In this document: in pieces, positions 1-20,991 of the stretch | Layout of the letters: each line of letters begins with the position of its first letter | Position numbering within the stretch: the first letter of the stretch is position 1 | Origin: Escherichia coli | GTDB lineage: Bacteria > Pseudomonadota > Gammaproteobacteria > Enterobacterales > Enterobacteriaceae | Direction: 5' to 3' (one strand) | Length of the DNA stretch: 64,000 nt | Assembly: GCF_029227855.1 (NCBI RefSeq) | Contig: NZ_CP074358.1 | The notes under the pieces: model-generated | What the model was told of the DNA's origin: nothing | The model's database searches: none | Seen by the model: only the letters and a program-made list of their open reading frames with translations | Position numbers and translations under genes: made by a program

Positions 1-2
1 GA

Positions 3-170
3 CGCGGGAAAGTACTTGTACTCAGGAAGGGAGATATCGAAATCCCTTCAGATCTTGCCGGGGTTCTCTATACCGAGCTTGATGAGCATGGTGGATGGAA
101 ACGCAAACTGCTGAGTGAGCTTGCGTATGCCGGTGTTCCTTTTGACAAGGATAAAGCATTAAGCGCCTGA
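3..170 (+). CDS. 3' end of an unidentified gene (55 codons in window, stop TGA 168-170)
   Basis: Open frame 3 entering from upstream of the window; ends just before a hairpin shared with the convergent gene; no motif recognised. Confidence 0.3.
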   Translation, partial: RGKVLVLRKGDIEIPSDLAGVLYTELDEHGGWKRKLLSELAYAGVPFDKDKALSA

Positions 171-185
171 TCTCCTTCATTTAGT

Positions 186-217
186 AAGAAAAAGGCCGCT
201 AAGCGGCCTTAATTTTT
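186..217. terminator. Bidirectional rho-independent terminator between convergent genes
   Basis: ggccgc-taa-gcggcc hairpin flanked by an A-run upstream and a T-run downstream (aaaaaggccgctaagcggccttaattttt). Confidence 0.6.
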
Positions 218-219
218 GG

Positions 220-2445
220 TCAGTCGTCATTTTCCAGCGCTGTTTTGAGCGCTTCCTGCTCCGGAGTCAGCTCGTTGCCGGACAGCATAACCTTCAACTT
301 CTCTTCGACTGCTGGCCAGTCATCAAAGAACGGACTGACCTGGTCACGCGCAATCCGGCGATATGCCCCTCGGTGGGAGCTGAAGACACTGGTCTGTAAT
401 CGTATCAACAGGTTAACAAGGCCTTCATCAGTGGTAGTAACTTCTCTGACCCATTGCTTCACGGTTTCACCTGAACTCATGTCTCTCCAGGCGTAGAGAT
501 ACCCGAGAAGAGACTTGCGCAGGAGAAGCTGTTGCTGAAGTTCTGGTTGATTCATACGTTCCGCAAACCTGTCACGCAACCGTTCCGTAATATCGCGACT
601 GAAAAGAGCATCTGAAGGCGAAGGTACTGCATTCTGAGCAAGTCCATGTTCCCAGATAAGATCCCGCATAAAATCGGCTATCCAGAACGGCGAAGCACCC
701 GTAACGATCAGTTTTTCCATAAGCGTGATCGTTCTGGTCTCATCAATATCCTGCATATGCTTCAGCAGATGCCGTACAACCTCATTAATGGCCATTTCAC
801 GCAGGGAAAACCATGGGTTACGGATACTGAAGCGAGTGCTCACCTCATCGGTGTGCTCGAAGAAAAAATGAACCAGTCCTGCGCACTCTTCGAAATTACG
901 TTCTCTTATCAGGCCTGGAGTCAGTCTGCTCAGTATATGTTCAAACCAGGTTCCGGACAGACTGCCCACACTGTTGATTTTTGAGAGCAGCAATTCAGAA
1001 AGCTGCTGCTGTTTTTCCGATACGCCAGCCTGTTCAAAAAGCTGTCTGAAGAATTCAGGTGGCAGAACATTCTGTGGTGAGGAGAAGGCAAAATAATATC
1101 GCCAGTGCGTCAGGCTGCTGAGTCGTTTACCGGTCGTCTGGATATGACGAAAATCCTCACTGACGGGCTCAAAAAGATTCAGATATTCATCATTATGTCC
1201 ACTGATACCTGGGATCCAGTCTGCAAGTGTCAGAAACGAGTCTGCATTTGATGCCCTGAACGTCTTCATACATCTGATAAGCCCCTCCCGGAAGTCTGCT
1301 TTCTCTCCGTCAGAAAGCATACCCTGACCGGTTTCAATCACGGACCGTTCTGTCAGGTAATGCTCTGTCCAGTCATACAGAGCCGGGTTTGTCACCCGTA
1401 TAAGCTGAAGCAGGCACAAATCAGGGAAATAAACAAAATCCCGCATCCCCGGATAAAGAAAAATCAGGGAATTAATGGCCTGATGGATTTCCCGTGGCGT
1501 CGAAAGTGCGGCACCATAGGTATCAGTCACCGCGATGAGATCCCTTACCATTCCAGAGTCTGGCGGTTGATTATTAATTTGCTGATATAGAGCCTCAGCC
1601 CGCTGGCGAAATTCATTACGTAAATCAAAGGCTTCAGGTCGGGGTAATTTAAAACTAAGCTGAATGATTTTCTGGAGATAACGGCTGCCATCTTCGATAT
1701 TCAGCGCATGTTCAACGGCATGAGTGATAATCTGCCTGTCATAACAGAGAATATGGGTAAAGCGGGGCAGATCGGCTACTGCACGCACAAGCCTGAACAC
1801 TTCCGCCACCTGGGATGGCTCCAGTCGGTCCAGATCATCCATGACAACAATGAACTTCAGATCCAGACTCACCAGTTGTCCTGCAATTTCAGCCCGAAGC
1901 TTTGTCGTGGTTTTCTGATCAACAGCCAGACGGCTGTCTGAAAATACCTTTATTCCGCCTGCTATCCAGTTAATAATGCTGGAAAACTGTCCGATATATT
2001 GAACCAGTGGAAGGACGCGCGATGAAGTATCCTGAGCATACTCAATCACTTTTTGAGCTTCCGGTGACAACAGATATTTACGCCAGAGCTTTTTGAAGCC
2101 CTTCGGGGGATAGCGTATTTCCATTTCCTGCTGGATAACCGTGGCAACCGGAAGAAAGAGCGCTTCAACCGGACTGCCGCCACTCAGCCAGGGAGAAATA
2201 TGCAGCACATGTGTGTGAGCATCTTTTTTCAGGGCAAGGTTTCTCAGGATCAGATTAAGGAGGCTTGTTTTACCCGATCCCCATGCACCTTCTATTCCGA
2301 CAACATTTGAAGCCTCCAGAGGAAGAGTAAGGATGGAACGGGATATATTTTCTGCGATATTACCGAAACCGTATCGATCCTCAGGTACATCTTCAACTGC
2401 CGCATCAAGCCCTTTCTGGTTCCACAGCTGCCTCAGTATCTTCAT
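220..2445 (-). CDS. pifA: KAP-family P-loop NTPase, 741 aa; probable PifA (phage T7 exclusion / abortive infection protein of F-like plasmids)
   Basis: Walker A GAWGSGKTS near N-terminus, Walker B-like hhhhDDLDR, size typical of KAP NTPases; PifA is a founding member of the KAP family; start 1 nt after upstream gene stop (TAATATG). Confidence 0.7.
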   Translation of the reverse strand: MKILRQLWNQKGLDAAVEDVPEDRYGFGNIAENISRSILTLPLEASNVVGIEGAWGSGKTSLLNLILRNLALKKDAHTHVLHISPWLSGGSPVEALFLPVATVIQQEMEIRYPPKGFKKLWRKYLLSPEAQKVIEYAQDTSSRVLPLVQYIGQFSSIINWIAGGIKVFSDSRLAVDQKTTTKLRAEIAGQLVSLDLKFIVVMDDLDRLEPSQVAEVFRLVRAVADLPRFTHILCYDRQIITHAVEHALNIEDGSRYLQKIIQLSFKLPRPEAFDLRNEFRQRAEALYQQINNQPPDSGMVRDLIAVTDTYGAALSTPREIHQAINSLIFLYPGMRDFVYFPDLCLLQLIRVTNPALYDWTEHYLTERSVIETGQGMLSDGEKADFREGLIRCMKTFRASNADSFLTLADWIPGISGHNDEYLNLFEPVSEDFRHIQTTGKRLSSLTHWRYYFAFSSPQNVLPPEFFRQLFEQAGVSEKQQQLSELLLSKINSVGSLSGTWFEHILSRLTPGLIRERNFEECAGLVHFFFEHTDEVSTRFSIRNPWFSLREMAINEVVRHLLKHMQDIDETRTITLMEKLIVTGASPFWIADFMRDLIWEHGLAQNAVPSPSDALFSRDITERLRDRFAERMNQPELQQQLLLRKSLLGYLYAWRDMSSGETVKQWVREVTTTDEGLVNLLIRLQTSVFSSHRGAYRRIARDQVSPFFDDWPAVEEKLKVMLSGNELTPEQEALKTALENDD

Positions 2446-2446
2446 A

Positions 2447-3538
2447 TTACAGATCTCCGTACAGGCAGCGCAGCCCGGTCAGGGCCTCCGCCAGCGGGCC
2501 TTCTTGACACCGCGTGGCGAGCTCCCGGACCAGCGTCTCAAAGGCCTCCGCCGGCATAAAAATCCGCAGGCCGTCTATCCCGAAGAAGCCCTCCGGCGTG
2601 ACGTTTCCGGGCGGGGAGAACATCACTCGCTCCCCCTGGTGACCGTGCGTCAGGGCTTCCGGATGCCGGGCATACAGCGTGAACAGGCCCAGCAGTTCGG
2701 ATAACGCTTCCCAGCCGTACGGCACCACGAAGTCCTGGCCGGTGATCAGCAGGTGCAGACGGGGTGTGGTGTACCAGGCCCCCGGGCGTTCTCCGGGGTG
2801 CTGGCCGTCAACGCGGATCTCCAGGCGCAGCGTGCCGGCCTCAATGGTTTCCGTGACGGCAGAAATAACCGGGCGCAGCTCCTGTGCCAGCGTTCTTGCC
2901 TGTTCTGTGTTCCAGTCCAGGCCGCGCAGCATCAACGGGAAAACAGCTTTCAGCCGCGGCAGGGTGAAGATTTCTGCCAGCACCGCGTCCGGCACCTCCG
3001 CCAGGCCAAAACAGTCGCTCTCGAGCGGACGCAGGAGGTGTTCGGCATACATCTGATCCACCACGGGGCGCAGCGCTGCCCGGAAGGCTTCAAACTCTTC
3101 CGTCCAGTTTTTCCCGGCCAGGCGGAAAATCCCCTTCAGGTAGTGACCGTCCACAGGGCGATCGTGCTCCACCTGCCAGGCCAGCAGGTTGCCAGTGATG
3201 TCCAGCAGCGTGTCCAGGGCCGGGAGTGTGGCCAGCCTATTATGCCCGCGCAGGAAGGCCTCCCTGACGTGAACCAGGACAAAGCGCAGTTCGTCGCGGG
3301 AGAGCGCTGACGTGCCGAAGGTCTGGCCCAGAATGATATGCCGGTACAGCTGCCGGACCGTGGCCTCCGGATCGGCAATGAGCTGAAAATACCCGTCACC
3401 GGGCGCGACCGTTTTCAGGCCGTCATCGAGGAAGCGTTCGGCTAGGGCGTTGACCGAAGTATTTTCCCGACCGGCACGCGTTTTCAGCGCCTCGATAAGT
3501 TTTTTGTGAAAACGCAGGTTAAGCTGGCTTAGCATCAT
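2447..3538 (-). CDS. pifC: 363 aa protein with N-terminal ribbon-helix-helix/Arc-like motif; probable PifC (RepC) autoregulator of the pif operon
   Basis: N-terminus LNLRFHKKLIEALKTRAGRENTSVNALAERFLDDGL resembles RHH DNA-binding domain; ~40 kDa; immediately upstream of and coupled to the KAP NTPase gene. Confidence 0.55.
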   Translation of the reverse strand: MMLSQLNLRFHKKLIEALKTRAGRENTSVNALAERFLDDGLKTVAPGDGYFQLIADPEATVRQLYRHIILGQTFGTSALSRDELRFVLVHVREAFLRGHNRLATLPALDTLLDITGNLLAWQVEHDRPVDGHYLKGIFRLAGKNWTEEFEAFRAALRPVVDQMYAEHLLRPLESDCFGLAEVPDAVLAEIFTLPRLKAVFPLMLRGLDWNTEQARTLAQELRPVISAVTETIEAGTLRLEIRVDGQHPGERPGAWYTTPRLHLLITGQDFVVPYGWEALSELLGLFTLYARHPEALTHGHQGERVMFSPPGNVTPEGFFGIDGLRIFMPAEAFETLVRELATRCQEGPLAEALTGLRCLYGDL

Positions 3539-3565
3539 CGATCCTTTAATGTTTGTTTTGTTCTT

Positions 3566-3582
3566 AATGCTAACCTAGCATT
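3566..3582. promoter_or_regulatory. Perfect palindrome aatgcta-acc-tagcatt in AT-rich region upstream of pifC; candidate operator (pifO-like)
   Basis: Inverted repeat read directly from sequence ~35 bp upstream of the pifC start on the - strand. Confidence 0.35.
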
Positions 3583-4220
3583 TTATTATTAGCTATTAAT
3601 CAGTTTTTTAGTTTTTGAAAATTGTGATGCTTCTAAAATTACTAAAATTGAGGATTTTAATGCTACAACAATGCCTGCCTCTTCTTATTTCTCCGGAGAT
3701 CCGAAAACCCCAAGTTCAGGATCTTCCTCTCCCCCCACACAACGCCACCTCCTGTAAGCACAATATGTGGTGCCGGATTCAGCTACTGATGACACTATAT
3801 GTTGTGTCATCTCCCTGACCTGTGATGCGTCGCGCAGGGGCGGAAAACAGCGATATGATGATTTCCTCAGCGTGGTACACTTCCGGAAACCCGTCAATAA
3901 CAGAAAAATCGGATCTGCCTGAAATGGGCATCCGGTAATTTAATGGCGTGGTTATATGCCTGCTTATTATCTGACAGGTGATGATTTATTTAGGGGAAAA
4001 TAATTCATGCTGACAGAGTGTTGTGCTGCCATGCGTAATAACTCTGAGCGACTGTTGCTTCCGGTATCAGTTGAGTGAGGATTTTCAGACCACCACGTTT
4101 TACTGACCAGTAAAAATTTTTTTTGCCCGCAAGGCTGACAAGTGACTTCTTTTAGAATTTCGGCATCCACAACCAATGGCAGGAAGCCCGATGCAAAAAT
4201 TTTTAAGGAGAGCTCTTTTA

Positions 4221-4460
4221 ATGAAAATTGCTCAGCAATTACTGGAAGCCGTTCTGCAATTTATGAATGCATCTGCAATGACTCAGGTGCTGACGTTGCT
4301 ATTCCTGGCTCTGATAATACAGGTACTGAAAACATTAATTACGGCGTGGATAGTAAGAAAACCATCTTCAGGAGAGATGGTTTTAGACCGGAAACCTGAC
4401 TCTGCCGGGCGTAAGGATCACTGCAGGCAGCTGTCTCAACAAAGGAAAAAACATGGCTGA
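4221..4460 (+). CDS. Small predicted membrane protein (79 aa), unknown function
   Basis: ATG 4221 preceded by aaggag; hydrophobic segment VLTLLFLALIIQVLKTLITAWIV; stop overlaps next start (ATGGCTGA). Confidence 0.35.
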   Translation: MKIAQQLLEAVLQFMNASAMTQVLTLLFLALIIQVLKTLITAWIVRKPSSGEMVLDRKPDSAGRKDHCRQLSQQRKKHG

Positions 4461-4742
4461 CTGGTTTATTGCAACTGAAGGTGTGAAGGTGGTGAAAGAT
4501 AGTGCCAGCCTGTGGCCGCAGATCATCACGGCGGTTTTGTCTGCCGGTACTGCATTTGGTGGTGTGTGGTACGGGCAGTGGCGGATAACACAGCGAGAGG
4601 AGGAAGCTGCAACAGCGAAGCTGGTCAGCGAACGTCTCTTTATTGCCACGGAGCTGGTTTTTCTGCTGGAGAGGTTTGCGCAGCGTTGTGCTCCAGCAGC
4701 AACAGCAACTGTGGAGCACGATCAGGATGGCAGAGGAGAAGC
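4453..4742 (+). pseudogene. Membrane-protein gene truncated by the IS3 insertion (about 96 native codons retained)
   Basis: Strong RBS aaaggaaaaaacATG; hydrophobic segment LWPQIITAVLSAGTAFGGVWYG; reading frame runs into the IS3 left inverted repeat and stops inside it. Confidence 0.4.
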
Positions 4743-4798
4743 TGATCTTACCCAGCAATAGTGGACACGCGGCTAAGTGAGTAAACTCTCAGTCAGAG

Positions 4799-5107
4799 GT
4801 GACTCACATGACAAAAACAGTATCAACCAGTAAAAAACCCCGTAAACAGCATTCGCCTGAATTTCGCAGTGAAGCCCTGAAGCTTGCTGAACGCATCGGT
4901 GTTACTGCCGCAGCCCGTGAACTCAGCCTGTATGAATCACAACTCTACAACTGGCGCAGTAAACAGCAAAATCAGCAGACGTCTTCTGAACGTGAACTGG
5001 AGATGTCTACCGAGATTGCACGTCTCAAACGCCAGCTGGCAGAACGGGATGAAGAGCTGGCTATCCTCCAAAAGGCCGCGACATACTTCGCGAAGCGCCT
5101 GAAATGA
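4799..5107 (+). CDS. IS3 OrfA (transposase N-terminal HTH part)
   Basis: 102 aa, helix-turn-helix and leucine-zipper-like C-terminus ([19 protein letters not shown]); inside the IS3 ends. Confidence 0.9.
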
Positions 5108-5970
5108 AGTATGTCTTTATTGAAAAACATCAGGCTGAGTTCAGCATCAAAGCAATGTGCCGCGTGCTCCGGGTGGCCCGCAGCGGCTGGTATACGTGGT
5201 GTCAGCGGCGGACAAGGATAAGCACGCGTCAGCAGTTCCGCCAACACTGCGACAGCGTTGTCCTCGCGGCTTTTACCCGGTCAAAACAGCGTTACGGTGC
5301 CCCACGCCTGACGGATGAACTGCGTGCTCAGGGTTACCCCTTTAACGTAAAAACCGTGGCGGCAAGCCTGCGCCGTCAGGGACTGAGGGCAAAGGCCTCC
5401 CGGAAGTTCAGCCCGGTCAGCTACCGCGCACACGGCCTGCCTGTGTCAGAAAATCTGTTGGAGCAGGATTTTTACGCCAGTGGCCCGAACCAGAAGTGGG
5501 CAGGAGACATCACGTACTTACGTACAGATGAAGGCTGGCTGTATCTGGCAGTGGTCATTGACCTGTGGTCACGTGCCGTTATTGGCTGGTCAATGTCGCC
5601 ACGCATGACGGCGCAACTGGCCTGCGATGCCCTGCAGATGGCGCTGTGGCGGCGTAAGAGGCCCCGGAACGTTATCGTTCACACGGACCGTGGAGGCCAG
5701 TACTGTTCAGCAGATTATCAGGCGCAACTGAAGCGGCATAATCTGCGTGGAAGTATGAGCGCAAAAGGTTGCTGCTACGATAATGCCTGCGTGGAAAGCT
5801 TCTTTCATTCGCTGAAAGTGGAATGTATCCATGGAGAACACTTTATCAGCCGGGAAATAATGCGGGCAACGGTGTTTAATTATATCGAATGTGATTACAA
5901 TCGGTGGCGGCGGCACAGTTGGTGTGGCGGCCTCAGTCCGGAACAATTTGAAAACAAGAACCTCGCTTAG
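5104..5970 (+). CDS. IS3 OrfB (transposase catalytic DDE part; expressed as OrfAB fusion by -1 frameshift)
   Basis: 288 aa with DDE/rve integrase core (WAGDITYL..., HTDRGGQY..., E in SFFHSLKVE). Confidence 0.9.
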
Positions 5971-6223
5971 GCCTGTGTCCATATTACGTGGGTAGGATCA
6001 GTTTGCATAAAAACGCAGCTATGTTGGGAGTAAAAGCACTGCGGTTATCACGAGAACTGAGAATGTTATGTGGCCTCCCTCTGCACGGCCTTTCCGATAC
6101 ACTATCGCCAACGAGGTTGGTATTGTTGAAAGCCAGAGGTAAAACACTCCAAAAGGAGTACGAAATGGTAAAGAAGTCTAAAAAGACCGAGCAAGAGATT
6201 GAGGATTTCATAAAGGGGACATC

Positions 6224-7015
6224 ATGAGTGGCCCACAATTGCTTTCCCTGCCTGGTTCTTTTTTAACGCCTCCGGCAACATTACCTGTTGCCATTGATTA
6301 CCCGGCTGCGCTGGCACTACGTCAGATGGCACTTGTGCAGGGCGAATTACCAAAATATCTGTTGGCGCCGGAGATCAGCGCCCTGCTCCGCTATGTACCG
6401 GATCTGCACCGCAAAATGTTGCTGGCCACCCTGTGGAACACGGGCGCACGTATAAACGAAGCGCTGGCGCTGACGCGGGGAGATTTTTCACTGGCGCCGC
6501 CATATCCGTTCGTACAGCTGGCCACGCTCAAACAACGGACTGAAAAAGCGACCAGAACGGCAGGCCGTGTCCCTGCTGGCAGTCAGGTGCATCGCCTGGT
6601 TCCCCTGTCCGATACACAATACGTCAGCCAACTGCAGATGATGGTGGCCACGCTGAAAATCCCACTGGAGCGCAGAAACAAACGAACCGGAAGAATGGAG
6701 AAGGCGCGCATCTGGGAAATCACCGACCGCACAGTTCGCACCTGGCTGAATGAAGCTGTAGAGGCCGCTGCGGCCGACGGCGTGACGTTCTCTGTTCCGG
6801 TTACCCCACATACTTTCCGCCATTCCTACGCGATGCATATGCTGTATGCTGGTATTCCGCTGAAGGTGCTGCAGAGCCTGATGGGGCACAAGTCGATTAG
6901 TTCGACAGATGTGTACACGAAGGTGTTTGCGCTGGATGTGGCTGCACGGCACCGGGTGCAGTTTTCGATGCCTGAGTCCGATGCTGTCACAATGCTGAAA
7001 AACAGACACGCATAA
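6224..7015 (+). CDS. resD: Tyrosine site-specific recombinase, ResD-like plasmid multimer resolvase
   Basis: C-terminal catalytic region with HTFRHSYAMHM...LMGHKSISSTDVYTKV (R..H..R..Y tyrosine recombinase signature). Confidence 0.8.
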   Translation: MSGPQLLSLPGSFLTPPATLPVAIDYPAALALRQMALVQGELPKYLLAPEISALLRYVPDLHRKMLLATLWNTGARINEALALTRGDFSLAPPYPFVQLATLKQRTEKATRTAGRVPAGSQVHRLVPLSDTQYVSQLQMMVATLKIPLERRNKRTGRMEKARIWEITDRTVRTWLNEAVEAAAADGVTFSVPVTPHTFRHSYAMHMLYAGIPLKVLQSLMGHKSISSTDVYTKVFALDVAARHRVQFSMPESDAVTMLKNRHA

Positions 7016-7152
7016 GTCACAAATCATAATTATGAATTGTGATTTATTCTATAAAAGAAGAGACCACTGCAATATGTGATCTCTTGTATGCAAGGGTGCT
7101 TAAACAGTGTGAATTCACAAGTGTGATTTCATAAGTAATAACTTCTTGATTA

Positions 7153-7428
7153 TTACGTTAGTGTTTTTAAGTATTGCTCAAGGGCTACTCTGACGATGGC
7201 ACTTACATTTTTTGGATCTTTACCATTGCGTTTATTCCTCAATGCCAGATCTTCTATTGTGACAAGCATGCTTTCACCAAGAGAGATTGTCGTCCGACAT
7301 TGTTTTTCTGGTTCGGGTTTTTCCGGCGCGCCGTATGGTTTATCCGCAAGGCGCTGAGCCAGAGCCTCTGCTTGTTCTACCGTAACTGCAGCTCTGTTTA
7401 ATGCTTGCTGGCTGGGTTTCTTCACCAT
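7153..7428 (-). CDS. Small centromere-binding protein of a type Ib partition system (ParG / small-ParB-like, 91 aa)
   Basis: Immediately downstream of and overlapping the ParA gene; RHH-like C-terminus (TTISLGESMLVTIEDLALRN...). Confidence 0.6.
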   Translation of the reverse strand: MVKKPSQQALNRAAVTVEQAEALAQRLADKPYGAPEKPEPEKQCRTTISLGESMLVTIEDLALRNKRNGKDPKNVSAIVRVALEQYLKTLT

Positions 7429-8066
7429 GGGCCAAATACCTCATTCATTAAATGTTCAATTTCTGCTCTGGCTGCTGTATTGTTCGTTTCTACTACACCG
7501 GTGCCGTTGCTCATGCAATCGCGATAGACTTTTCTGAAACAAATAACTGAATCCAGGACTTGAATTGTTGGGAATTCTTCAAGATATTCAAGGAATTCTT
7601 TTCTCTCATTTCCCCTCAAAACCGGATTGGTTGTTGCCATACTTTGTAAACAATAAACCTTAAGTTCCGGGTTAAGGTTACGCATTGCGTCTATCTGTTG
7701 TTCTAGTTCTGTAAGAGTATCCAGATCTGGTTGAGAACACTGTAGTGGCGCAATTATTTGATGTGCGACAACTCCACTCGTTATGAATTCCTTTGAGTTT
7801 CTTCCTGCGACATCCACTATTACATCATCGAACTTTTCATTCAGAGCCTGTAGTGTTTGTGTCAGGTTATCAAATTTCTCAACAAGGGTTATTGCTGGTA
7901 ACAGTCCTGCAGCTTCTCGTTCTGCATGATGTTTTGCGGCTGTTCGTTGTAGATCTCCGTTTAACAGGCAGACTTCCCTTCCTTTATTTGCGAGAGCAAT
8001 AGCCAGGTTTGATGCAATGGTAGTTTTCCCTGAACCACCTTTGTTCCCACCAACTACAGTAATCAT
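7422..8066 (-). CDS. parA: ParA-family partition ATPase (small, ParF-like, about 214 aa)
   Basis: Deviant Walker A GGNKGGSGKTT; start moved to MITVVGG (ATG at 8066 with gagg RBS) rather than the longer ORF-track start. Confidence 0.85.
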   Translation of the reverse strand: MITVVGGNKGGSGKTTIASNLAIALANKGREVCLLNGDLQRTAAKHHAEREAAGLLPAITLVEKFDNLTQTLQALNEKFDDVIVDVAGRNSKEFITSGVVAHQIIAPLQCSQPDLDTLTELEQQIDAMRNLNPELKVYCLQSMATTNPVLRGNERKEFLEYLEEFPTIQVLDSVICFRKVYRDCMSNGTGVVETNNTAARAEIEHLMNEVFGPW

Positions 8067-8084
8067 TGCAACCTCATAAATGTG

Positions 8085-8290
8085 ATGTGTGAAGTATGAT
8101 GATATTTTGACACGGTAACCTGATGTGTCAATATGCATTCATATTTATGAAGTATGAAATATGAAGTGTGTCATATGATGTAATAAATATTACTTGTGTT
8201 TTGTGATTTCATAACTATGATAGTTCTCAAATTGAGTATTACCTTGCAACCAGAAACAGTTATTTACTCAGATTGAGTATTTAAGGGGCT
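8085..8290. repeat. Iteron-rich intergenic region between divergent par operons (candidate shared centromere/promoter region)
   Basis: Repeated atgaagt(a/g)tg and tgtgatttcataa motifs between the divergent parA and parM starts. Confidence 0.5.
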
Positions 8291-8294
8291 ATAG

Positions 8295-9266
8295 ATGAAC
8301 GTATACTGCGATGATGGTTCAACAACAATCAAGTTGGCATGGAATGACAATGGGAAAATCTGTAAGTCGTTGTCGCAAAACTCATTTCGTCATGGATGGA
8401 AGGTTGACGGGTTAGGGATTCGCCAGACATTTAACTATGAACTGGATGGTAAAAAATACACGTATGATGAAGTTAGCAACCAATCTATTCTTACGACTCA
8501 TATTGAGTATCAATATACGGATGTTAACCTGTTAGCTGTGCATCACGCTTTACTGAATAGTGGATTAGCGCCTCAGCCTGTATCATTGACTGTGACTTTA
8601 CCTATCAGTGAGTTCTACACGAAAGAGTGTCAAAAAAATGAACTCAACATTCAGCGTAAAATTGAGAATTTAATGAGGCCGATTCGTCTTAATAAAGGCG
8701 ATGTTTTCACCATTGAACACGTTGATGTGATGCCTGAATCATTGCCAGCTGTGTTTTCTCGTCTGGTCATGGATAAAGTTGGTCAGTTCGAAAAATCGCT
8801 GGTAGTTGATATTGGCGGCACTACGCTTGATGTTGGTGTTATCGTTGGTCAATTTGACTCTGTAAGTGCCATTCATGGTAATTCTGGCATTGGTGTGTCT
8901 TCAGTTACGAAAGCTGCAATGAGTGCATTGCGCATGGCATCCAGTGATACCAGTTTCCTCGTTGCAGATGAATTGATTAAACGTCGTAATGATCCGGATT
9001 TTGTTCGGCAGGTTATAAATGACGAAACAAAAACTGATCTGGTCCTTAATACCATTGAGGGGGCTATTGCCAGTCTGGGGGAGCAAGTAGTCAATGAGCT
9101 CGGTGATTTTCATCATGTGAATCGTGTTTATGTTGTCGGTGGTGGGGCCCCGTTGATCTATGGTTCGATAAAAACGGCATGGCACCATCTTGGGCAAAAA
9201 GTAGTGATGATGGAGTCGCCACAGACAGCACTGGTTGAAGCTATCGCGGCTTTCAAAGAGGAGTAA
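8295..9266 (+). CDS. parM: Actin-like partition ATPase ParM/StbA
   Basis: N-terminal DDGSTTIKLAW and DIGGTTLD motifs of ParM/actin fold; 323 aa. Confidence 0.9.
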   Translation: MNVYCDDGSTTIKLAWNDNGKICKSLSQNSFRHGWKVDGLGIRQTFNYELDGKKYTYDEVSNQSILTTHIEYQYTDVNLLAVHHALLNSGLAPQPVSLTVTLPISEFYTKECQKNELNIQRKIENLMRPIRLNKGDVFTIEHVDVMPESLPAVFSRLVMDKVGQFEKSLVVDIGGTTLDVGVIVGQFDSVSAIHGNSGIGVSSVTKAAMSALRMASSDTSFLVADELIKRRNDPDFVRQVINDETKTDLVLNTIEGAIASLGEQVVNELGDFHHVNRVYVVGGGAPLIYGSIKTAWHHLGQKVVMMESPQTALVEAIAAFKEE

Positions 9267-9663: not shown

Positions 9664-9674
9664 TATATCAGAAT
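9657..9674. repeat. Perfect 18-bp palindrome attctgatatatcagaat containing the stop codons of both convergent genes (parR and impB)
   Basis: Read directly; TGA at 9661-9663 (+) and TGA at 9670-9668 (-) are symmetric within the palindrome. Confidence 0.8.
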
Positions 9675-10939
9675 GAAGCAATGGGGATCTCAGTCCATTG
9701 TGTTGTATACGAAGGCGAGAGCATTTCCCGTTTCATTTGCCATTCAGGGGCGGTTCCTCGCCCCGCAAACCACACTTTCCCTTTTCCCGACTGGTTCAGT
9801 TCATCGAGTGTTTTCATTAACTTTTCACTGTTTTTACGGGGCTGGATTTCATCAAATAATCCCGGCTGCGCTATACCCGATGGTGTGAAATCAGCCAGCA
9901 TGACTCCTGCCTTCATATAGCGGTACCCTTCACGCCAGACATGGTTTAAGGCTCTGCATGCGGCGGCAATAATGTCCCGGCTGTCCTGTGTGGGCAATGG
10001 AAGCTTTTCCACAGCGGCATTGCTGTAACAGGGTTCTTTTACTGCAAAGGGGGATGTCCGTACAAATGTCGTCACCTGCCGGCAATACTGACGCTCCCCA
10101 CGTAGTTTCTCTGCGGCCCGCTCTGCATACTGAACAACAGCCTGGTGCATGGCATCTTTGTCTGTGATTCGTTCACCAAAACTGCGACTACAGACAATCT
10201 GCTGTTTTGCCGGTGGTGCTTCTTCCAGGGATATGCAGGACTCGCCGTTGAGTTCGCGTACCGTACGCTCAAGAATGACGCTGAAGTTTTTCCGGATGAA
10301 TGCCGTGTTAGCCTGCGCCAGCTGCAGTGCTGTGTTAATACCCAGCGCATTCAGCTTTTCCGTCAGTCTGCGTCCTACTCCCCAGACCTCACCAACTGGC
10401 TGCAGCCCCAGTAGCTTCAAGGTCCGATTACGGTTTTCTGCCGTCAGCGCGACCACTCCGGAAAACTGTGGCCATTGCTTTGTTGCCCACTGTGCACTTT
10501 TAGCCAGCGTTTTTGTAGGCGCAATGCCCACCCCCATGGTGAGTCCTGTCCAGCTCTTTACCTGTTCCCTGAGCTGATGACCAAAAAACTCCGGAGAGAT
10601 GCAATGATTTATCCCCCGCAAATCAATAAACATTTCATCAATTGAGTAGGGCTCAACTGCGGGAGAAAGCGACTCCAGAACAGCCATGACCCGTTGGCTC
10701 ATGCTGTGGTACAGCGCATAATTGCTGGAAAATACATGTATTTTCTTCTCCAGGCGCATCTGTCTCACCTGAAACCAGGGCTGCCCCATTCTGATGCCAA
10801 GGGCTTTTGCCTCCGGGCTGCGCGCGATCACACAGCCATCGTTATTGCTGAGTACGATGACCGGTTCGTTGCGAAGGTCCGGGCGGAAAACTTTTTCACA
10901 TGAGGCGTAGAAACTGTTGATATCAGCCAGTGCAAACAT
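9668..10939 (-). CDS. impB: Y-family error-prone DNA polymerase catalytic subunit (UmuC/MucB/ImpB family)
   Basis: N-terminus MFALADINSFYASCE...VIVLSNNDGCVIARS, typical UmuC/DinB fold; 423 aa. Confidence 0.9.
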   Translation of the reverse strand: MFALADINSFYASCEKVFRPDLRNEPVIVLSNNDGCVIARSPEAKALGIRMGQPWFQVRQMRLEKKIHVFSSNYALYHSMSQRVMAVLESLSPAVEPYSIDEMFIDLRGINHCISPEFFGHQLREQVKSWTGLTMGVGIAPTKTLAKSAQWATKQWPQFSGVVALTAENRNRTLKLLGLQPVGEVWGVGRRLTEKLNALGINTALQLAQANTAFIRKNFSVILERTVRELNGESCISLEEAPPAKQQIVCSRSFGERITDKDAMHQAVVQYAERAAEKLRGERQYCRQVTTFVRTSPFAVKEPCYSNAAVEKLPLPTQDSRDIIAAACRALNHVWREGYRYMKAGVMLADFTPSGIAQPGLFDEIQPRKNSEKLMKTLDELNQSGKGKVWFAGRGTAPEWQMKREMLSPSYTTQWTEIPIASF

Positions 10940-11376
10940 CAGCGTAACTCCCGCGTCCTGTGTATCACGTGAGTGACAACACCAAAAATACAGATGTTTT
11001 CCGGATACAGTGTGCGGAATTCCGGGCTGTCTGAAACCGGCTCCAGTGCCGGGCGTGGGCGCAACAGCAGTCGTTTGACGGTGAACTCACCGTCGATCTC
11101 AGCGATAACGATGTCCCCGTGTTGTGGTTTTTCGGCCCTGTCCACTACCAGCAGATCACCATTCTGCACGCCAGCCTGGTTCATCGATTCACCGCTGGCG
11201 CGCAGAAAGAAGGTGGCTGCAGGTCTGCTGATGCAATAGCTGTTCAGATCCAGTTCCTGCTCAGCATAATCAGTGGCAGGCGAAGGAAAACCGGCCTGGC
11301 AACGATCGGCAAACAACGGTCGCACGTAACTGTCATCGCCTGAAGGGTCAGCCGGACGGTGATAAACGGTACTCAT
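10939..11376 (-). CDS. impA: UmuD/MucA/ImpA-like LexA-type S24 peptidase accessory subunit
   Basis: 145 aa; S24 self-cleaving peptidase motifs (…AGFPSPA… SM… VVDR… GDIVIAEIDGEFTVKRL). Confidence 0.9.
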   Translation of the reverse strand: MSTVYHRPADPSGDDSYVRPLFADRCQAGFPSPATDYAEQELDLNSYCISRPAATFFLRASGESMNQAGVQNGDLLVVDRAEKPQHGDIVIAEIDGEFTVKRLLLRPRPALEPVSDSPEFRTLYPENICIFGVVTHVIHRTRELR

Positions 11377-11621
11377 GCTGCAGGCAGCCAGCTGTCGTCC
11401 TGCCAGATTTCTTCCAGCAGAGACAGGATACGTTCTTTATCCTTGTCGTTGCGGGCTCCTGTGACAGATACAGACGGGGCGCTGCCCTGGTCAATACGCA
11501 GCCAGATTTCCGGGTAGTGTGGTTTCAGACGTTGTTCGATTTCATTCTGTAGCGCCTGAAGTGTGCCTGATTTGAGGTTTTTTGTGCTCTGGCGGTCGAA
11601 AAGAATTTCAATGCGGATCAT
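11373..11621 (-). CDS. impC: ImpC-like small protein, first gene of impCAB operon (82 aa)
   Basis: Start moved to MIRIEILFDR (ATG 11621, ggaga RBS); overlaps impA start; position and size match ImpC. Confidence 0.7.
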   Translation of the reverse strand: MIRIEILFDRQSTKNLKSGTLQALQNEIEQRLKPHYPEIWLRIDQGSAPSVSVTGARNDKDKERILSLLEEIWQDDSWLPAA

Positions 11622-11644
11622 GTTCTCATCTCCCTTTTCTTTTG

Positions 11645-11660
11645 CTGTATGTATATACAG
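11645..11660. promoter_or_regulatory. LexA (SOS) box CTGTATGTATATACAG upstream of impC
   Basis: Matches CTGT-N8-ACAG consensus, about 25 bp upstream of impC start. Confidence 0.75.
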
Positions 11661-12012
11661 TATTCTAATAACTGAATTCACACAGTCAAATGTCCTTATT
11701 GTGACTAAAAAACGCTCAGCTCTCTGAGTGTGTGCCTGTATGCCTGCTGTGGACTGCTGTGTCCAGCTTATCCACAGCATTATGCGCACGGTTCTGTGGA
11801 CAAAATACCTGGTTACCCAGGCCGTGCCGGCACGTTAACCGGGCTGCATCCGATGCAAGTGTGTCGCTGTTGCCGGCCTCCTCACCCGGTCACGTTTCGT
11901 CGTTCCTCCTCCACGCGCTGCGGCTTCGGGGCCGCACCTGCATTCGTATGCGGTCGCCCGGTTACAGGTGCGGCACGGCCTGATGGAGGCCGCATGTAAG
12001 AGGAGAATTCCC

Positions 12013-12939
12013 ATGCCAAACTGGTGCGCCAATCGTATGTATTTTTCTGCCGAACCGGCACAGATTGCTGAGATTAAACGACTGGCCAGCGGTGCCGTCA
12101 CACCGTTTTATCGCCGCGCCACAAATGAAGGTATTCAGTTGTTTCTGGCCGGAAGTGCCGGACTTCTGCAAACCACTGAAGATGTGCGGTTTGAACCATG
12201 CCCCGGACTGAGCGCTGCCGGACGTGGCGTTGTATCGACGGAAAATATTGCGTTCACCCGCTGGCTGACACTCCTGCAGGACAGTGTACTGCTGGATGAG
12301 CAAAACTGCCTGATGCTGCATGAACTCTGGCTGCAGAGCGGTACTGGACAGCGTCGCTGGGAAGGATTACCGGATGATGCCAGGGAAACCATCACTGTGC
12401 ATTTCACCGCAAAAAGAGGTGACTGGTGTGACATCTGGGGTAACGAGGATATATCGGTGTGGTGGAACCGTCTGTGTGACAACGTACTGCCGGAAAAAAC
12501 CATGCCGTTTGACCTGTTGACGGTTCTGCCGACCCGCCTGGATGTTGAAGTAAATGGCTTTAACGGTGGTGTTCTGAACGGTGTTCCTTCTGCATATCAC
12601 TGGTATACAGAACGGTATGGCGTGAAGTGGCCTTGTGGGTATGACCTGAATATCAGCAGTCAGGGAGAAAACTTCATTCAGGTTGATTTCGACACGCCGT
12701 GGTGTCAGCCGGAAAGCGACGTTATTGCAGAATTAAGCCGCCGTTTCAGCTGCACGCTGGAGCACTGGTTTGCCGAACAGGGCTGTGATTTCTGTGGCTG
12801 GCAGTTGTATGAGCGCGGAGAGCTCGTTGATGTGCTGTGGGGGGAACTGGAATGGTCTTCCCCGACAGATGACGATGAGCTGCCGGAAGTCACCGGACCT
12901 GCGTGGATAGTCGACAATGTGGCGCATTATGGCGGATGA
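12013..12939 (+). CDS. Conserved hypothetical protein (308 aa), Cys/Trp-rich, first + strand gene of the leading-region block
   Basis: ATG 12013 with aggaga RBS; followed by hairpin terminator; no catalytic motif recognised. Confidence 0.55.
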   Translation: MPNWCANRMYFSAEPAQIAEIKRLASGAVTPFYRRATNEGIQLFLAGSAGLLQTTEDVRFEPCPGLSAAGRGVVSTENIAFTRWLTLLQDSVLLDEQNCLMLHELWLQSGTGQRRWEGLPDDARETITVHFTAKRGDWCDIWGNEDISVWWNRLCDNVLPEKTMPFDLLTVLPTRLDVEVNGFNGGVLNGVPSAYHWYTERYGVKWPCGYDLNISSQGENFIQVDFDTPWCQPESDVIAELSRRFSCTLEHWFAEQGCDFCGWQLYERGELVDVLWGELEWSSPTDDDELPEVTGPAWIVDNVAHYGG

Positions 12940-12952
12940 AGTATGACGGAGA

Positions 12953-12978
12953 CGGGCGGGCAACCGCCCGTTTCTTTT
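12953..12978 (+). terminator. Rho-independent terminator-like hairpin
   Basis: cgggcggg-caac-cgcccg followed by tttctttt. Confidence 0.55.
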
Positions 12979-13323
12979 CCGGTAAAGGATGTCGCCGTGC
13001 TCCTCTTTTTACTGCGCCGGCTGACGCGGCGCGGCATAAACGCTGCCTGTGGTCAGTGTCCCGCGTCCGGTGGGTACGGGACGGGCGCTTTTACCGCTCC
13101 CGGCTGGCGTCGGTGACAGTGTACGCCAGCCTGTCGCCCTTTTCTGATGAGCGCCCTTCAAGCCGCTTTCGCGGCATAGCCTTGCCGTCAAAAAGACGAC
13201 GGCTGCGGTATTCCACGGTCGGCCTGACCCGTTACCGGACGCGGTGAACAGCCCACAGGCAGCGGGGAACGGGCACCACAGGGGTGCCCTCCCGGTGCCT
13301 TCTGTAAGAGAAGGAGTGTTGTT

Positions 13324-14007
13324 ATGTCCCGTTTTGTCCTCGGTAACTGCATCGATGTTATGGCCCGTATTCCTGATAACGCCATTGATTTCATACTGAC
13401 TGACCCGCCATATCTCGTCGGTTTCCGTGACCGTTCCGGGCGCACCATCGCCGGTGATAAAACCGACGAATGGCTGCAACCGGCCTGTAATGAAATGTAC
13501 CGCGTGCTGAAAAAAGATGCGCTGATGGTGAGCTTCTATGGCTGGAACCGCGTCGATCGCTTTATGGCCGCCTGGAAAAATGCGGGATTCAGCGTGGTTG
13601 GCCACCTGGTATTTACCAAAACCTACACATCGAAGGCCGCATATGTGGGCTATCGCCACGAATGCGCTTACATCCTGGCAAAAGGGCGTCCGGCGCTGCC
13701 TCAGAAGCCATTGCCCGACGTGCTGGGCTGGAAATATTCAGGCAACCGCCATCACCCGACGGAAAAGCCTGTTACCAGCCTGCAACCACTGATTGAGAGC
13801 TTCACACACCCGAACGCGATTGTGCTGGACCCGTTTGCAGGCAGCGGCTCAACCTGTGTGGCTGCCCTTCAGTCCAGACGCCGGTATATCGGTATCGAGC
13901 TGCTTGAACAGTATCACCGTGCCGGACAGCAACGACTGGCCGCCGTGCAACGGGCCATGCAGCAGGGGGCCGCGAATAATAACTGGTTTGAACCGGAGGC
14001 TGCGTAA
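13324..14007 (+). CDS. Orphan DNA methyltransferase (N6-adenine/N4-cytosine type, beta-class motif order)
   Basis: DPPY motif IV (ILTDPPYLVGF) precedes motif I (FAGSGSTCVAA); RBS agaaggag; no restriction endonuclease partner nearby. Confidence 0.85.
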   Translation: MSRFVLGNCIDVMARIPDNAIDFILTDPPYLVGFRDRSGRTIAGDKTDEWLQPACNEMYRVLKKDALMVSFYGWNRVDRFMAAWKNAGFSVVGHLVFTKTYTSKAAYVGYRHECAYILAKGRPALPQKPLPDVLGWKYSGNRHHPTEKPVTSLQPLIESFTHPNAIVLDPFAGSGSTCVAALQSRRRYIGIELLEQYHRAGQQRLAAVQRAMQQGAANNNWFEPEAA

Positions 14008-14229
14008 ATGAACTATGCCGGACACGAAAACCTTCGTGCTGAAGTGGCGGAGGTGGCCAATGCCATGTGTGACCTTCGGGCCAGGCTGAACGATATGGAG
14101 CATCGCTGTCGCTTTGATTCCGATGTGCTCGTTGAACGCCTGGCACGCCAGACGCTGTATCGCGCCAATCGCCTGTTCATGGAGGCATATACCGAAATTC
14201 TTGAACTGGATGCGTGCTTCAAAGATTAA
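14008..14229 (+). CDS. Small hypothetical protein (73 aa), translationally coupled to the methyltransferase
   Basis: ATG directly abuts the upstream TAA stop. Confidence 0.45.
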   Translation: MNYAGHENLRAEVAEVANAMCDLRARLNDMEHRCRFDSDVLVERLARQTLYRANRLFMEAYTEILELDACFKD

Positions 14230-14241
14230 GGGGGAGACGAA

Positions 14242-14676
14242 ATGTACGGAACATGCAAAACGCTCTGCCGGGAGCTGGCAGCAAAGTATCCGGGAGACAC
14301 GCCGCTGATGCTGCTTATCTGGTCCCCGGAAGAGATTCAGGCCCTCGCTGACGGAATGGATATTTCCCTGTCCGATCATGAAATCAGGACTGTCCTGGCG
14401 CGCCTGGAGGACATCCCGGAAGACCAGCGGACTGAATCCGGTATTTCTTCCGCCGCTGCGATGGAGATTATCAGCAACGTGAGCGAAAACCGCCAGGTGA
14501 CCGTCTCTGCTGAACTGCTGGCGTCCCTGATTCAGACTGCTGAACAGGCACTGTGGAAACGTGAATGGGCCGCCCGGGATCATGGCCTCGCCGTCCCGGA
14601 ATGCGTCACCCGCCGTCAGGCGGTGATTAATCAGGCCCGCACCCTGCTGAAAAACAACACACACGAAAACGACTGA
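14242..14676 (+). CDS. DUF1380-like leading-region protein (paralog of 16394-16816)
   Basis: Shares acidic helical pattern and RQVTV(S/P)A motif with the 16394 ORF; family assignment from memory. Confidence 0.55.
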
Positions 14677-15293
14677 TGTTATCGCCGCCTGCCCTGCGGG
14701 CGGCGATACAGGGAGAACGCTTAATCATGAACGAAAACTGCACGCTGAACGCACTGATTTGTCGTCACGCCCGCAACCTGCTGCTGGCGCAGGGCTGGCC
14801 GGAGGAGACGGATGTTGATCAGCGAGATCCACAGAACTATCCGGGCTGGATCAGCATTTACGTGCGGCTGGATGCGCCCCGGCTGGCGACGTTACTCGTC
14901 AACCGCCACGATTGCGTACTGCCGCCGGTCCTGGCTTCCGCCATGCAAAAACTGACCGGAACCGGGGCGGAGCTGGTACTGTCCGGCAGTCAGTGGCAGT
15001 CGCTGCCGGTACTTCCGGCAGACGGAACGCAGGTGTCTTTCCCGTATGCCGGCGAATGGCTGATCGAAGACGAAATCAGGGCTGTACTTGCGGCGGTGCG
15101 CGATGCGGTACGCAGTGTCAGTTGCCGGGTGGCAGAAGATGCACGGCGTATCCGGGCGGCGCTGACCACCACCGGTCAGACGTTGCTGACCCGCCAGACG
15201 CGCCGCTTTCGTCTGGTTGTGAAGGAAAGCGATTACCCCTGCTGGCTTGATGAAGATGACGAAAATCTGCCGTGGTGCTCGATGCCATTCTGA
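14676..15293 (+). CDS. Hypothetical protein (205 aa if coupled start TGATG at 14676; 188 aa if ATG 14727)
   Basis: Start overlaps upstream stop; alternative ATG at 14727 has gggaga RBS. Confidence 0.45.
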
Positions 15294-15505
15294 ACCGTGG
15301 CGCACGTTTTTCCTCTGTGGAAATGTACCTGGTCTGTGAGTGTGTGGAGCATATCCTGGCCAGTGGTCTGGTCTGTGATGTGCTGCGTATACCAGATGAA
15401 CCGTCCCGTCGCTGGTTTGACCGGGATATTCTGCGGGAGGTTGTTCTGGAGGCACGGGATGAAATCCGCAGCATGGCGGATGCACTGGCGAAAATCCGGA
15501 AATGA
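15272..15505 (+). CDS. Small hypothetical protein (77 aa, GTG start)
   Basis: Overlaps end of upstream ORF by 22 nt; followed by hairpin ggcgg-ggaaaaatct-ccgcc with T-rich tail. Confidence 0.3.
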
Positions 15506-15921
15506 TGACGCTGGCGGGGAAAAATCTCCGCCTTTTCCAGCCGGTCCTCGGACAGAGCACAAAGGAAGTCGCCGCCGGGTCCGCTTTACCCGGCCATGCA
15601 GGGCATGGCCTTGTGGTTTTTCAGTTATGTGGCCTCAGCGTCGTGTGCGGGCTGTGCCGTGCCTCCATCTTAGCCGGGCTGGCGTTGATGCAAGGGTACG
15701 CTTCGCCGCTGCGGTCACCCGGTCCCTCCTTCCCGTCTGCCGTGATTTTCCGGTCGTTCACCCGCTCAGATTTCGCGGTCTCACCCTGCAACTCCCGTCA
15801 GCCGTGTGCGTCAGGCTGCGGCTTCCCTTGCGCCCCTGCATCCCCGCCTGTTCGCCCGGCTTTTATGGAGGCACGGCACCGCCCGGTGTCGCGGAATATG
15901 TGAACAACAGAGGAAAACATC

Positions 15922-16347
15922 ATGCAATATGCGAAACCTGTCACTCTGAATGTTGAAGAGTGCGACCGTCTCTCCTTTCTGCCGTATCTGTTTGGCAACG
16001 ATTTTCTGTATGCCGAGGCGTATGTGTACGCGCTGGCGCAAAAAATGATGCCGGAATATCAGGGAGGCTTCTGGCACTTCATCCGCCTGCCGGACGGTGG
16101 CGGTTACATGATGCCGGATGGCGACCGTTTCCACATGGTGAACGGTGCAAACTGGTTTGACCGTACCGTGAGTGCTGATGCCGCAGGCATCATCCTGACC
16201 TCCCTTGTGATTAACCGCCAGTTGTGGCTGTACCACGACAGCGGGGATGCAGGACTGACCCAGCTTTACCGGATGCGCGATGCGCAGTTGTGGCGTCACA
16301 TCGAATTTCACCCCGAATGCAACGCGATTTACGCGGCTCTGGACTGA
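15922..16347 (+). CDS. klcA: Antirestriction protein, KlcA/ArdB family
   Basis: [31 protein letters not shown] and [12 protein letters not shown] match recalled KlcA/ArdB pattern; 141 aa. Confidence 0.8.
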
Positions 16348-16393
16348 TTAACGGACGGGGCGGCAATGCCGCCCCTGTAAAGGAGACGAGAAC

Positions 16394-16816
16394 ATGTACT
16401 GTACTGTTAAAGAAATTATCCGCGAAGTGCTGGATACAGACGTGCCGGACAGTGAATGCGTTTTTGCCGTAGTGCTGACCCGTGGGGATGTGCGTCACAT
16501 AGCCCAGGACTGGAGTCTGACAGACGATGAGCTGGAAACCGTCATGCAGCGGCTGGACGATGCCTTTGAATATGGTGCGGATGTCAGCGTTGTTCACGGC
16601 GTTGTTCGTGAACTGATGGAAGAAAAGCGCGCCAGCCGTCAGGTGACAGTCCCGGCGGTGATGCTGGAAAAAGTGATGGCGCTGGCAGGCAGTGAAATGA
16701 AGCGCCTGTATGCCGTCGGGAGTGAGAACGGGGGCGACGGTGACGCATTCGTCAGGGAGGAACGCGAAGCAATGGACGTTGTGTTACAGGCGCTGGACGG
16801 GGAGACGATGTCATGA
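16394..16816 (+). CDS. DUF1380-like leading-region protein (140 aa)
   Basis: Acidic protein immediately after klcA, paralogous to 14242 ORF. Confidence 0.55.
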   Translation: MYCTVKEIIREVLDTDVPDSECVFAVVLTRGDVRHIAQDWSLTDDELETVMQRLDDAFEYGADVSVVHGVVRELMEEKRASRQVTVPAVMLEKVMALAGSEMKRLYAVGSENGGDGDAFVREEREAMDVVLQALDGETMS

Positions 16817-17004
16817 ATATCAGCACAGAAACCCGCGAAATTCTGCGTAATTACAGGGCCGTGATTAATGCGCGGCGTCGTGAAATGGGGCAGAAACCGC
16901 TCACCACCGCGCAGATTGTTGATGAAATCTGCGATTTTGTGGCGAATCAGCAGGCGGTTTTCCTGGGCGGTCACTACATCTTACAGGGTAGCAGAAACAG
17001 GTGA
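16813..17004 (+). CDS. Small hypothetical protein (63 aa), coupled (ATGA overlap)
   Basis: Start overlaps stop of upstream ORF. Confidence 0.4.
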   Translation: MNISTETREILRNYRAVINARRREMGQKPLTTAQIVDEICDFVANQQAVFLGGHYILQGSRNR

Positions 17005-17169
17005 TACAGGGGCAGGCGGTGGAGGCCGCCTGTCAGTCCGCGCGAAAACCCCTGGCAGGCTGACGCCTGCCGGAAGGGAAGCGGACCACGCTGGCGCGTC
17101 GCCCGTTACCCTTCCCGTCTGTGATGTGTCTGACTCAGGAGTGTTTCTTTCTTATGTTATGGAACTGTT

Positions 17170-17625: not shown

Positions 17626-17853
17626 TCTTTAAAAATCAGGATTTATTTCAGGCTCCGGCAATACGCATTTATGTGTTCTGTCAGTCATCCGGCTGGCAGG
17701 TAATGAGAACGCAGGAACAGAAGGAGGAAAACACCGGAGAACGTCAGACGCAGATATGAAAAAAGCAGGTCAGGGACCTGCTTAATCCACACCGCAGAGA
17801 CTGCACGAACAGTCTTTACGGTTTCATTAATTAACGTCATAAGAGGCTAAATT

Positions 17854-20965: not shown

Positions 20966-20991
20966 AAAACATCAACAGAAGGAGGCACATC

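Follow-up and report, generated by a model that had tools for sequence, protein, structure and literature searches.

The window analysed here is a 64,000-nucleotide stretch of Escherichia coli DNA (contig NZ_CP074358.1 of RefSeq assembly GCF_029227855.1), read 5' to 3' on one strand. Near its left end, a complete copy of IS3 lies within the second of two overlapping plus-strand open reading frames (ORFs). This pair is preceded by the pif genes and the rfsF/oriV-1 region, as in the F plasmid, and is followed by a gene for a ResD-type recombinase. The features of the locus are as follows:

220..2445, minus strand: pifA (PADLOC PifA, E 2.9e-290)
2447..3538, minus strand: pifC
3697..3940, no strand assigned: conserved non-coding block corresponding to the F rfsF/oriV-1 region (98.7% identity to F), presumed target region of ResD
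3941..4190, plus strand: leader region of the two-gene unit with its putative promoter, from alignments
4191..4460, plus strand: first ORF, intact; the ATG at 4191 gives 89 aa, that at 4221 gives 79 aa
4453..4742, plus strand: 5' fragment of a 229-aa gene (nt 1-290), from alignment with the intact gene in NZ_CP025905.1
4743..6000, plus strand: complete IS3, 1258 bp, from its termini, inverted repeats, orfA/orfB, and NCBIfam match
4743..4781: IS3 left inverted repeat
4808..5107, plus strand: IS3 orfA (NCBIfam transpos_IS3, E 1.9e-09)
5104..5970, plus strand: IS3 orfB (NCBIfam transpos_IS3, IS3 family transposase, E 3.3e-101)
5962..6000: IS3 right inverted repeat
6001..6227, plus strand: 3' fragment of the 229-aa gene (nt 464-690), from alignment with relatives
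6224..7015, plus strand: resD, encoding an intact ResD-type tyrosine recombinase of 263 aa (Xer and tyrosine-recombinase models)

The left part of the locus is closely related to F: positions 1..3940 share 98.7% identity with the pifA-pifC-rfsF/oriV1 region of that plasmid. The first base of the non-coding block at 3697..3940 corresponds to F nt 45922. The RepFIA segment as given in PMC4398462 also starts there and contains two rfsF sites, with oriV-1, ccdAB, and resD after them. The block is conserved across IncF, IncR, Serratia, Pantoea, and Pectobacterium loci, and the motifs kept in it are GATCCGAAAA..GGATC (CGGATC in most relatives), CTATATGTTGTGT, CGTGGTACACTTCCGGAAA, AAATCGGATC, and TCCGGTAATT. 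Homology to F ends at 3940 and returns inside the recombinase gene at 6284, and the window recombinase is 90% identical to F ResD over 244 residues at the amino acid level. In the F annotation, rfsF/oriV1 is followed by ccdA, ccdB, and resD in that order; the gap in F homology (3941 to approximately 6283) therefore places the two-gene unit of the window in the ccdA-ccdB slot of F. The leader of the unit contains the sequence GCTGCTTATTATC (3959..3971), which is kept in loci with the 229-aa family and is absent from F. A scan for promoter and terminator consensus sequences returned nothing above chance.

The IS3 copy and the interrupted gene

The element begins with TGATCTTACCC and ends with GGGTAGGATCA, giving the TG...CA termini (TGATC...GATCA), and its inverted repeats are identical at 28 of 39 positions. 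Many annotated IS3 copies match its ends at 99-100% identity, and the canonical length of IS3 is likewise 1258 bp. An AAAAG run is present at 5070..5074, in the orfA/orfB overlap region. Two statements of an earlier, sequence-only reading of this DNA are borne out by direct reading of the letters: IS3 interrupts the second of two overlapping plus-strand ORFs, and it lacks a matching 3-bp duplication. The triplet bordering the element on the left is AGC (4740..4742), while that on the right is GTT (6001..6003); a 3-bp target duplication is therefore absent, and the present arrangement is not that of a simple insertion. The identity of the element as IS3 is unaffected by this loss, which is a state of the window copy.

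The same reading had proposed that the uninterrupted gene be sought in related plasmids, and it was found there. When intact, the gene is 690 bp in length and encodes a 229-aa protein, annotated as WP_000796232.1 in NZ_CP025905.1 (locus L001), where the intact pair occupies 14661..15612. Both flanks of IS3 belong to this one gene and have the same orientation; relative to NZ_CP025905.1, the window copy is without nt 291-463 (173 bp), with the gap falling exactly at IS3. The wider flanks (3900..4742 and 6001..7100) match many plasmids at greater than 99% identity, with 173 bp between the two matches. When the flanks were joined into a 400-base query, 411 PLSDB records were matched at a coverage of at least 80%: among the 40 matches listed, each full-length one consists of two pieces spanning approximately 573 bp (the query plus approximately 173 bp), and none of those listed has the 173-bp deletion without IS3. 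The missing bases are also absent from the rest of the window. The target duplication is thus missing because the 173 bp next to IS3 have been lost.

The consequence for the gene is a null allele, made up of a stub encoding 96 N-terminal residues and a 3' remnant, and the loss of 173 bp is not a multiple of three. The truncated ORF has 96 native codons and two bases of codon 97, which is completed inside IS3; it continues with DLTQQ and stops at 4759..4761, also inside the element. Searches of PLSDB, 5426 complete E. coli genomes, species-representative genomes, and JGI metagenome contigs returned neither IS3 junction, and the IS3-carrying allele is unique so far.

We consider it highly probable that IS3 inserted into this gene, a conserved upstream partner of ResD, and that a local deletion anchored at the element followed. 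In the first step, IS3 would have entered the gene at either the left or the right junction seen today, making the usual 3-bp duplication. In the second, an event anchored at one end of IS3 would have removed 176 bp (173 bp of the gene and one copy of the duplicate). Two routes to this deletion can be envisaged: an IS3 end may have attacked its own molecule a short distance away (adjacent deletion), or a second IS3 may have landed 173 bp away in direct orientation, with homologous recombination between the copies. Both yield an identical product, and the sequence cannot separate them. IS3-family elements normally move via a circular copy, and classical adjacent deletion is not a standard route for them, so the two-copy route is kept. 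We infer this two-step history rather than observe it, since no relative with IS3 at either site and an intact duplication was found in the collections searched.

The sequence-only reading had taken the unequal triplets to mark a recombination junction between two IS3 copies. It was right that this is not a simple insertion, but the colinearity of the flanks within one gene argues for insertion and deletion at an IS3 end rather than for a junction of distant copies. Were the element a hybrid of two distant copies, the locus would mark the junction of an inversion, a large deletion, or a cointegrate. Such a history would fit the differing triplets, and the replicon extends beyond the 64-kb window and could hold another IS3. 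However, a single gene contains both flanks in one orientation, a spacing of 173 bp separates them in each full-length match listed for the joined-flank query (411 plasmids), and the gene order on both sides (pifCA-rfsF to the left, resD-parAB-parM to the right) matches that of the relatives. Furthermore, neither another IS3 nor long repeats were found in the 64-kb window. A hybrid of distant copies is thus extremely improbable; two IS3 copies could have recombined only if the second lay 173 bp away in direct orientation.

A deletion that was not driven by the IS, but arose by replication slippage or microhomology and ended at the IS3 terminus by chance, is also improbable, if not to the same degree. 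The deleted segment and IS3 both begin with TGA, and this 3-bp microhomology at the left junction leaves a small chance of a slippage-type event; at the right junction, the microhomology is 1 bp (A). Three bases are a very short homology, however, and a deletion that ends precisely where an IS begins bears the mark of an IS-linked event. No relative among the matches listed has this deletion without IS3. Insertion followed by IS3-anchored deletion is accordingly the history that we retain, and an ordinary one: it represents routine plasmid wear and tear.

The gene pair and the 229-aa family

For the first ORF we use the ATG at 4191, following RefSeq in relatives, and the second ORF starts at 4453, so that the two overlap by 8 nt. 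The 89-aa product is strongly hydrophobic in one segment (Kyte-Doolittle 19-residue maximum of 2.29 at residues 33-51) and a basic C-terminus (RKDHCRQLSQQRKKHG). The ORF was found by tblastn in only 85 PLSDB plasmids, nearly all of them with more than 95% identity. Divergent copies are few and lie in degenerate loci where the ORF is broken, and they give no evidence of selection on its coding sequence. More distant relatives of the locus have unrelated ORFs of 104-132 aa in this position, one of which is DUF3223/HamC-like. The 89-aa ORF is thus not conserved outside a narrow clade; it is either a variable partner or the occupant of a cargo slot.

The second protein is of a different kind. Its Kyte-Doolittle maximum is 1.25, below the usual threshold of 1.6, and an AF2 model (mean pLDDT of 82) predicts a four-helix bundle preceded by one weakly hydrophobic helix. 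Of the two hydrophobic ORFs described in the sequence-only reading, the first is therefore strongly and the second only weakly so. The label of a two-gene small membrane-protein module fits only the first ORF and overstates the pair; the disrupted gene encodes a 229-aa protein with the predicted fold just described. The two ORFs also differ with respect to conservation: relatives are contiguous at this site without IS3, and in them the first ORF is unconserved while the second is strongly conserved.

The 229-aa family is large. A tblastn search placed it in 2099 of 72,556 PLSDB plasmids (about 3%), a large protein collection yielded 272 homologues (all hypothetical where named), and a profile search returned 1009 representatives at 50% identity. 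The N-terminal 28 or so residues are nearly invariant even though their codons show many third-position changes, which indicates that selection acts on the protein. Distant members are without this N-terminal peptide and do not always have a recombinase gene adjacent to them.

Database searches gave two named matches to the protein: the PADLOC phage defence candidate PDC-S67 (E 1.3e-15; residues 33-210 align with positions 6-186 of the 203-position profile) and phrog_33426 (E 5.6e-21). No Pfam match was obtained with the single sequence or with two alignments (76 members in all), the only NCBIfam match was at chance level, and a PDB profile search returned nothing. Several homologues are labelled DUF4760 in UniProt; we could not reproduce this assignment, as Pfam-A scans of the query and of 76 family members gave no match to DUF4760 at E <= 0.1. 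Literature searches with PDC-S67, the RefSeq protein accessions, and DUF4760 found nothing useful, and PDC-S67 appeared in no paper.

The gene is dispensable, as it is also broken outside the window. In several plasmids, it is truncated at approximately the equivalent of window position 4709 by the end of an IS26-type element, which we take to be IS26. In loci L017 and L018, it is broken by frameshifts and deletions, and resD is open in L018.

Adjacency to resD and readings of function

In all 10 of the enterobacterial plasmid or integrative-element settings examined, the 229-aa gene is directly upstream of a ResD-like recombinase gene or its fragments. These settings comprise E. coli IncF, Klebsiella IncR, Serratia, Pantoea, Citrobacter, Klebsiella grimontii, and Pectobacterium loci and a metagenome contig. 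The gene lies directly 5' of a Phage_integrase gene in L001, L002, L003/L004, L006, L007, L008, L010, L011, and L018, and a family member adjoins recombinase gene fragments in L009. In the window, its stop codon overlaps the resD start (ATGA), and a stop/start overlap with the recombinase gene is also present in L001, L006, L008, and L010. The order of the cassette is rfsF block, variable small ORF, 229-aa family gene, and resD.

This arrangement could mean that the 229-aa protein serves ResD/rfsF dimer resolution in an accessory or regulatory role, e.g. as a membrane tether or timer. Such a role would fit the position immediately 5' of the ResD-like gene in every enterobacterial setting examined, the stop/start overlaps in the window and the four loci above, and the retention of the gene together with an rfsF-like block in both IncF and IncR, whose family members share 32% identity. 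However, F has ccdAB in the slot and no family member there, and F ResD resolves dimers at rfsF without one. Furthermore, the 229-aa gene is broken where resD persists (the latter is intact both in the window and in L018 and carries an annotation in L019), and the distant family members without an adjacent recombinase gene also argue against this role. We regard it as unlikely.

Rather less likely still is that the gene acts on its own in anti-phage defence, a role suggested by its PADLOC label PDC-S67. The matches to PDC-S67 and phrog_33426 fit this possibility, and the far side of rfsF often carries defence genes (PifA, SMODS+S-4TM, KAP NTPase, putAbiC); some distant family members are near YobI-ATPase or ORC/Cdc6-like genes. 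PDC entries are only candidates, however, and their models are chosen by neighbourhood. The 229-aa gene is part of the backbone, fixed beside resD, whereas the defence genes are variable cargo beyond rfsF, and the neighbour in the IncR backbone is vapBC. The association with defence may therefore be guilt by proximity.

The holin function raised in the sequence-only reading is unlikely because there are no lysis genes nearby. The neighbours are pifC, rfsF, resD, and parAB, with no endolysin or lysis cassette among them, and the holin reading was rejected on this context. Holin-type features (a hydrophobic segment and a basic tail) are present in the 89-aa ORF; the 229-aa protein, with its hydropathy maximum of 1.25, does not fit. 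Neither protein showed similarity to a known toxin, antitoxin, or holin in Pfam, NCBIfam, or PDB.

The reading that we tentatively place first, ahead of a ResD accessory role and then of a defence gene, is that the 229-aa gene and the small ORF form a dispensable, ccd-like stability or abortive module and do not act as a recombination cofactor. In such a module, a variable small upstream protein would partner a conserved, membrane-associated effector with a four-helix bundle, and both would be co-expressed with ResD. Several observations favour this: the two ORFs share 8 nt and lie in the slot of ccdAB, the upstream ORF is variable (unrelated among relatives) while the downstream 229-aa gene is conserved, the downstream gene has been lost repeatedly, and its product matches PDC-S67 (E 1.3e-15). 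Against it stand the lack of similarity to toxins, antitoxins, and holins noted above, the weakness of the hydrophobic helix, the small ORF without evidence of selection, and the candidate status of PDC-S67. A type II toxin-antitoxin pair would consist of two small genes, whereas the downstream product here has 229 aa and the upstream ORF differs between relatives; the adjacency and ATGA coupling fit a ResD accessory role equally well.

A more speculative extension of the ccd-like reading, and a doubtful one, is that the 229-aa family and the small ORF are an unrecognised stability or abortive module that is wired into the ResD operon and interchangeable with ccdAB. Its effector would act on the membrane and might be released on failed dimer resolution, failed plasmid inheritance, or phage attack. 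If true, this would explain the presence of the unit in the ccdAB slot in thousands of enterobacterial plasmids, its defence flag, and its repeated inactivation by IS elements.

The IS3 event provides a worked example in which a missing target duplication can mean a small local deletion and need not mean a large rearrangement. The gene that was hit is a very common, uncharacterised backbone gene tied to ResD in enterobacterial plasmids and placed in the ccdAB slot of F. It adjoins the boundary of the rfsF region, where gene sets (often anti-phage) differ between plasmids, and its natural knockouts are ready comparisons for plasmid stability, dimer resolution, and phage resistance. The lead to keep is this uncharacterised family of ResD partners in the ccdAB slot.

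Comparison with known systems

With respect to IS3 itself (IS3 family, IS3 group), the window copy has the same length, TG...CA ends, imperfect terminal repeats, and overlapping orfA and orfB. It differs in the absence of the usual 3-bp direct repeat and in the loss of 173 bp of the adjoining target.

The closest counterpart of the locus as a whole is the RepFIA region of F. The left neighbours (pifA, pifC, and rfsF/oriV-1) are the same, with 98.7% nucleotide identity, and in both plasmids resD is directly preceded by a two-gene unit transcribed in its direction. The pair itself is unrelated: an 89-aa hydrophobic ORF and a 229-aa helical protein are found in the window in place of ccdA and ccdB, and the replaced segment (3941 to about 6283) takes in approximately the first 20 codons of resD.

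The rfsF-resD cassette of the IncR backbone (e.g. in pKPS30) has the same order as that of the window. Its family member is 247 aa in length, is 32% identical to the 229-aa protein, and has a stop/start overlap with the gene for a site-specific integrase. In contrast to the window, the IncR small ORF (116 aa) is unrelated, the left neighbour is vapBC rather than pifCA, and the family gene is intact.

Finally, the 229-aa sequence matches PDC-S67 and phrog_33426 over most of its length. Both are unannotated groupings, and the match therefore names the family without explaining it.

Left-hand sequence and the rfsF/oriV-1 block

The left-hand end of the window carries an F-type operon of the pif system, which is the classic system for T7 exclusion:

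220..3538, - strand, F-type pif operon (pifA and pifC)

The operon is 98.7% identical to that of the F plasmid at the nucleotide level and encodes PifA (741 aa; PADLOC PifA match, E 2.9e-290) and PifC (363 aa).

Comparison with loci L001-L011, drawn from relatives, places a mosaic boundary at 3690..3940: the sequence is of F type up to 3940 and of p300709_60 type from 3690 onward, the overlap between the two being confined to the conserved non-coding rfsF/oriV-1 block. No PLSDB record matched window 2400..4742 over its full length at more than approximately 95%. The cargo to the left of the block differs among relatives (SMODS+S-4TM, KAP NTPase, putAbiC, AAA_15, vapBC or colicin), a variety that fits the swapping of gene sets at rfsF reported previously (PMC8004404, PMC9412624).

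Within the block, a perfect palindrome is found at 3788..3811 (GATGACAC-N8-GTGTCATC). Its centre, CTATATGTTGTGT, is kept across distant loci, and its arms are not conserved in F. The palindrome is a possible recombinase core site.

IS3 junctions and other broken copies of the 229-aa gene

At the right junction of IS3, the 3' remnant of the disrupted 229-aa gene is still read in its native frame by an ORF that keeps the ATGA overlap with resD and could maintain translational coupling to this recombinase gene:

5988..6227, + strand, GTG-initiated 79-aa ORF with its start inside the IS3 right end

The segment missing at the IS3 site begins with TGAGTTCTTATTACC in the intact locus (L001, 3844..3858), which bears a loose likeness to the IS3 left end, TGATCTTACCC (window 4743..4757). 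Target sequences resembling the element's own ends are known for IS3-family elements; the likeness here may be due to chance.

The 229-aa gene is also broken in other plasmids. In a second lineage, represented by L019 (NZ_CP093922.1, approximately 2960..3001), it is cut short at a point corresponding to window position ~4709, 34 bp from the IS3 site; the other records of this truncation are matched only at positions 167-400 of the 400-base query joined from both IS3 flanks. The truncating end in this lineage reads GGCACTGTTGCAAATAGTCGG, which we take to be IS26, and resD is annotated as intact (263 aa) in L019. Both the small ORF preceding the 229-aa gene and the gene itself are frameshifted or partly deleted in two more plasmids (L017, 1722..2428; L018, 1479..2432), and the full-length recombinase ORF downstream is still open in L018.

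Two further variations of the cassette were observed. In a Serratia plasmid, the first copy of the 229-aa family is separated from the recombinase gene by a second one that has diverged (209 aa; L002, 6722..7351), and a Pectobacterium locus has a DUF3223/HamC-like protein (L003, 5609..5968; PADLOC HamC2, E 2.3e-4) in the small-ORF slot.

Plasmid backbone and partition genes

Window 9668..63794 is an IncFII-type conjugative plasmid backbone carrying umuC, a DNA methylase gene, psiA and a candidate transfer region, called from ORF sizes, that includes a 1756-aa ORF (53725..58995). The replication protein lies near its right-hand end:

62925..63794, IncFII RepA

The leading region, close to psiA and the ParB-like gene, contains families of direct repeats (213 and 300 nt) at 17424..26396; they are spaced approximately 5.4 kb apart, and their closest copies are 97-98% identical.

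Divergent partition genes (7153..9266) adjoin resD:

7153..7428, - strand, 91-aa partner
7422..8138, - strand, ParA-type ATPase
8295..9266, + strand, ParM-type gene

The arrangement is similar to that of the pB171 double par locus.
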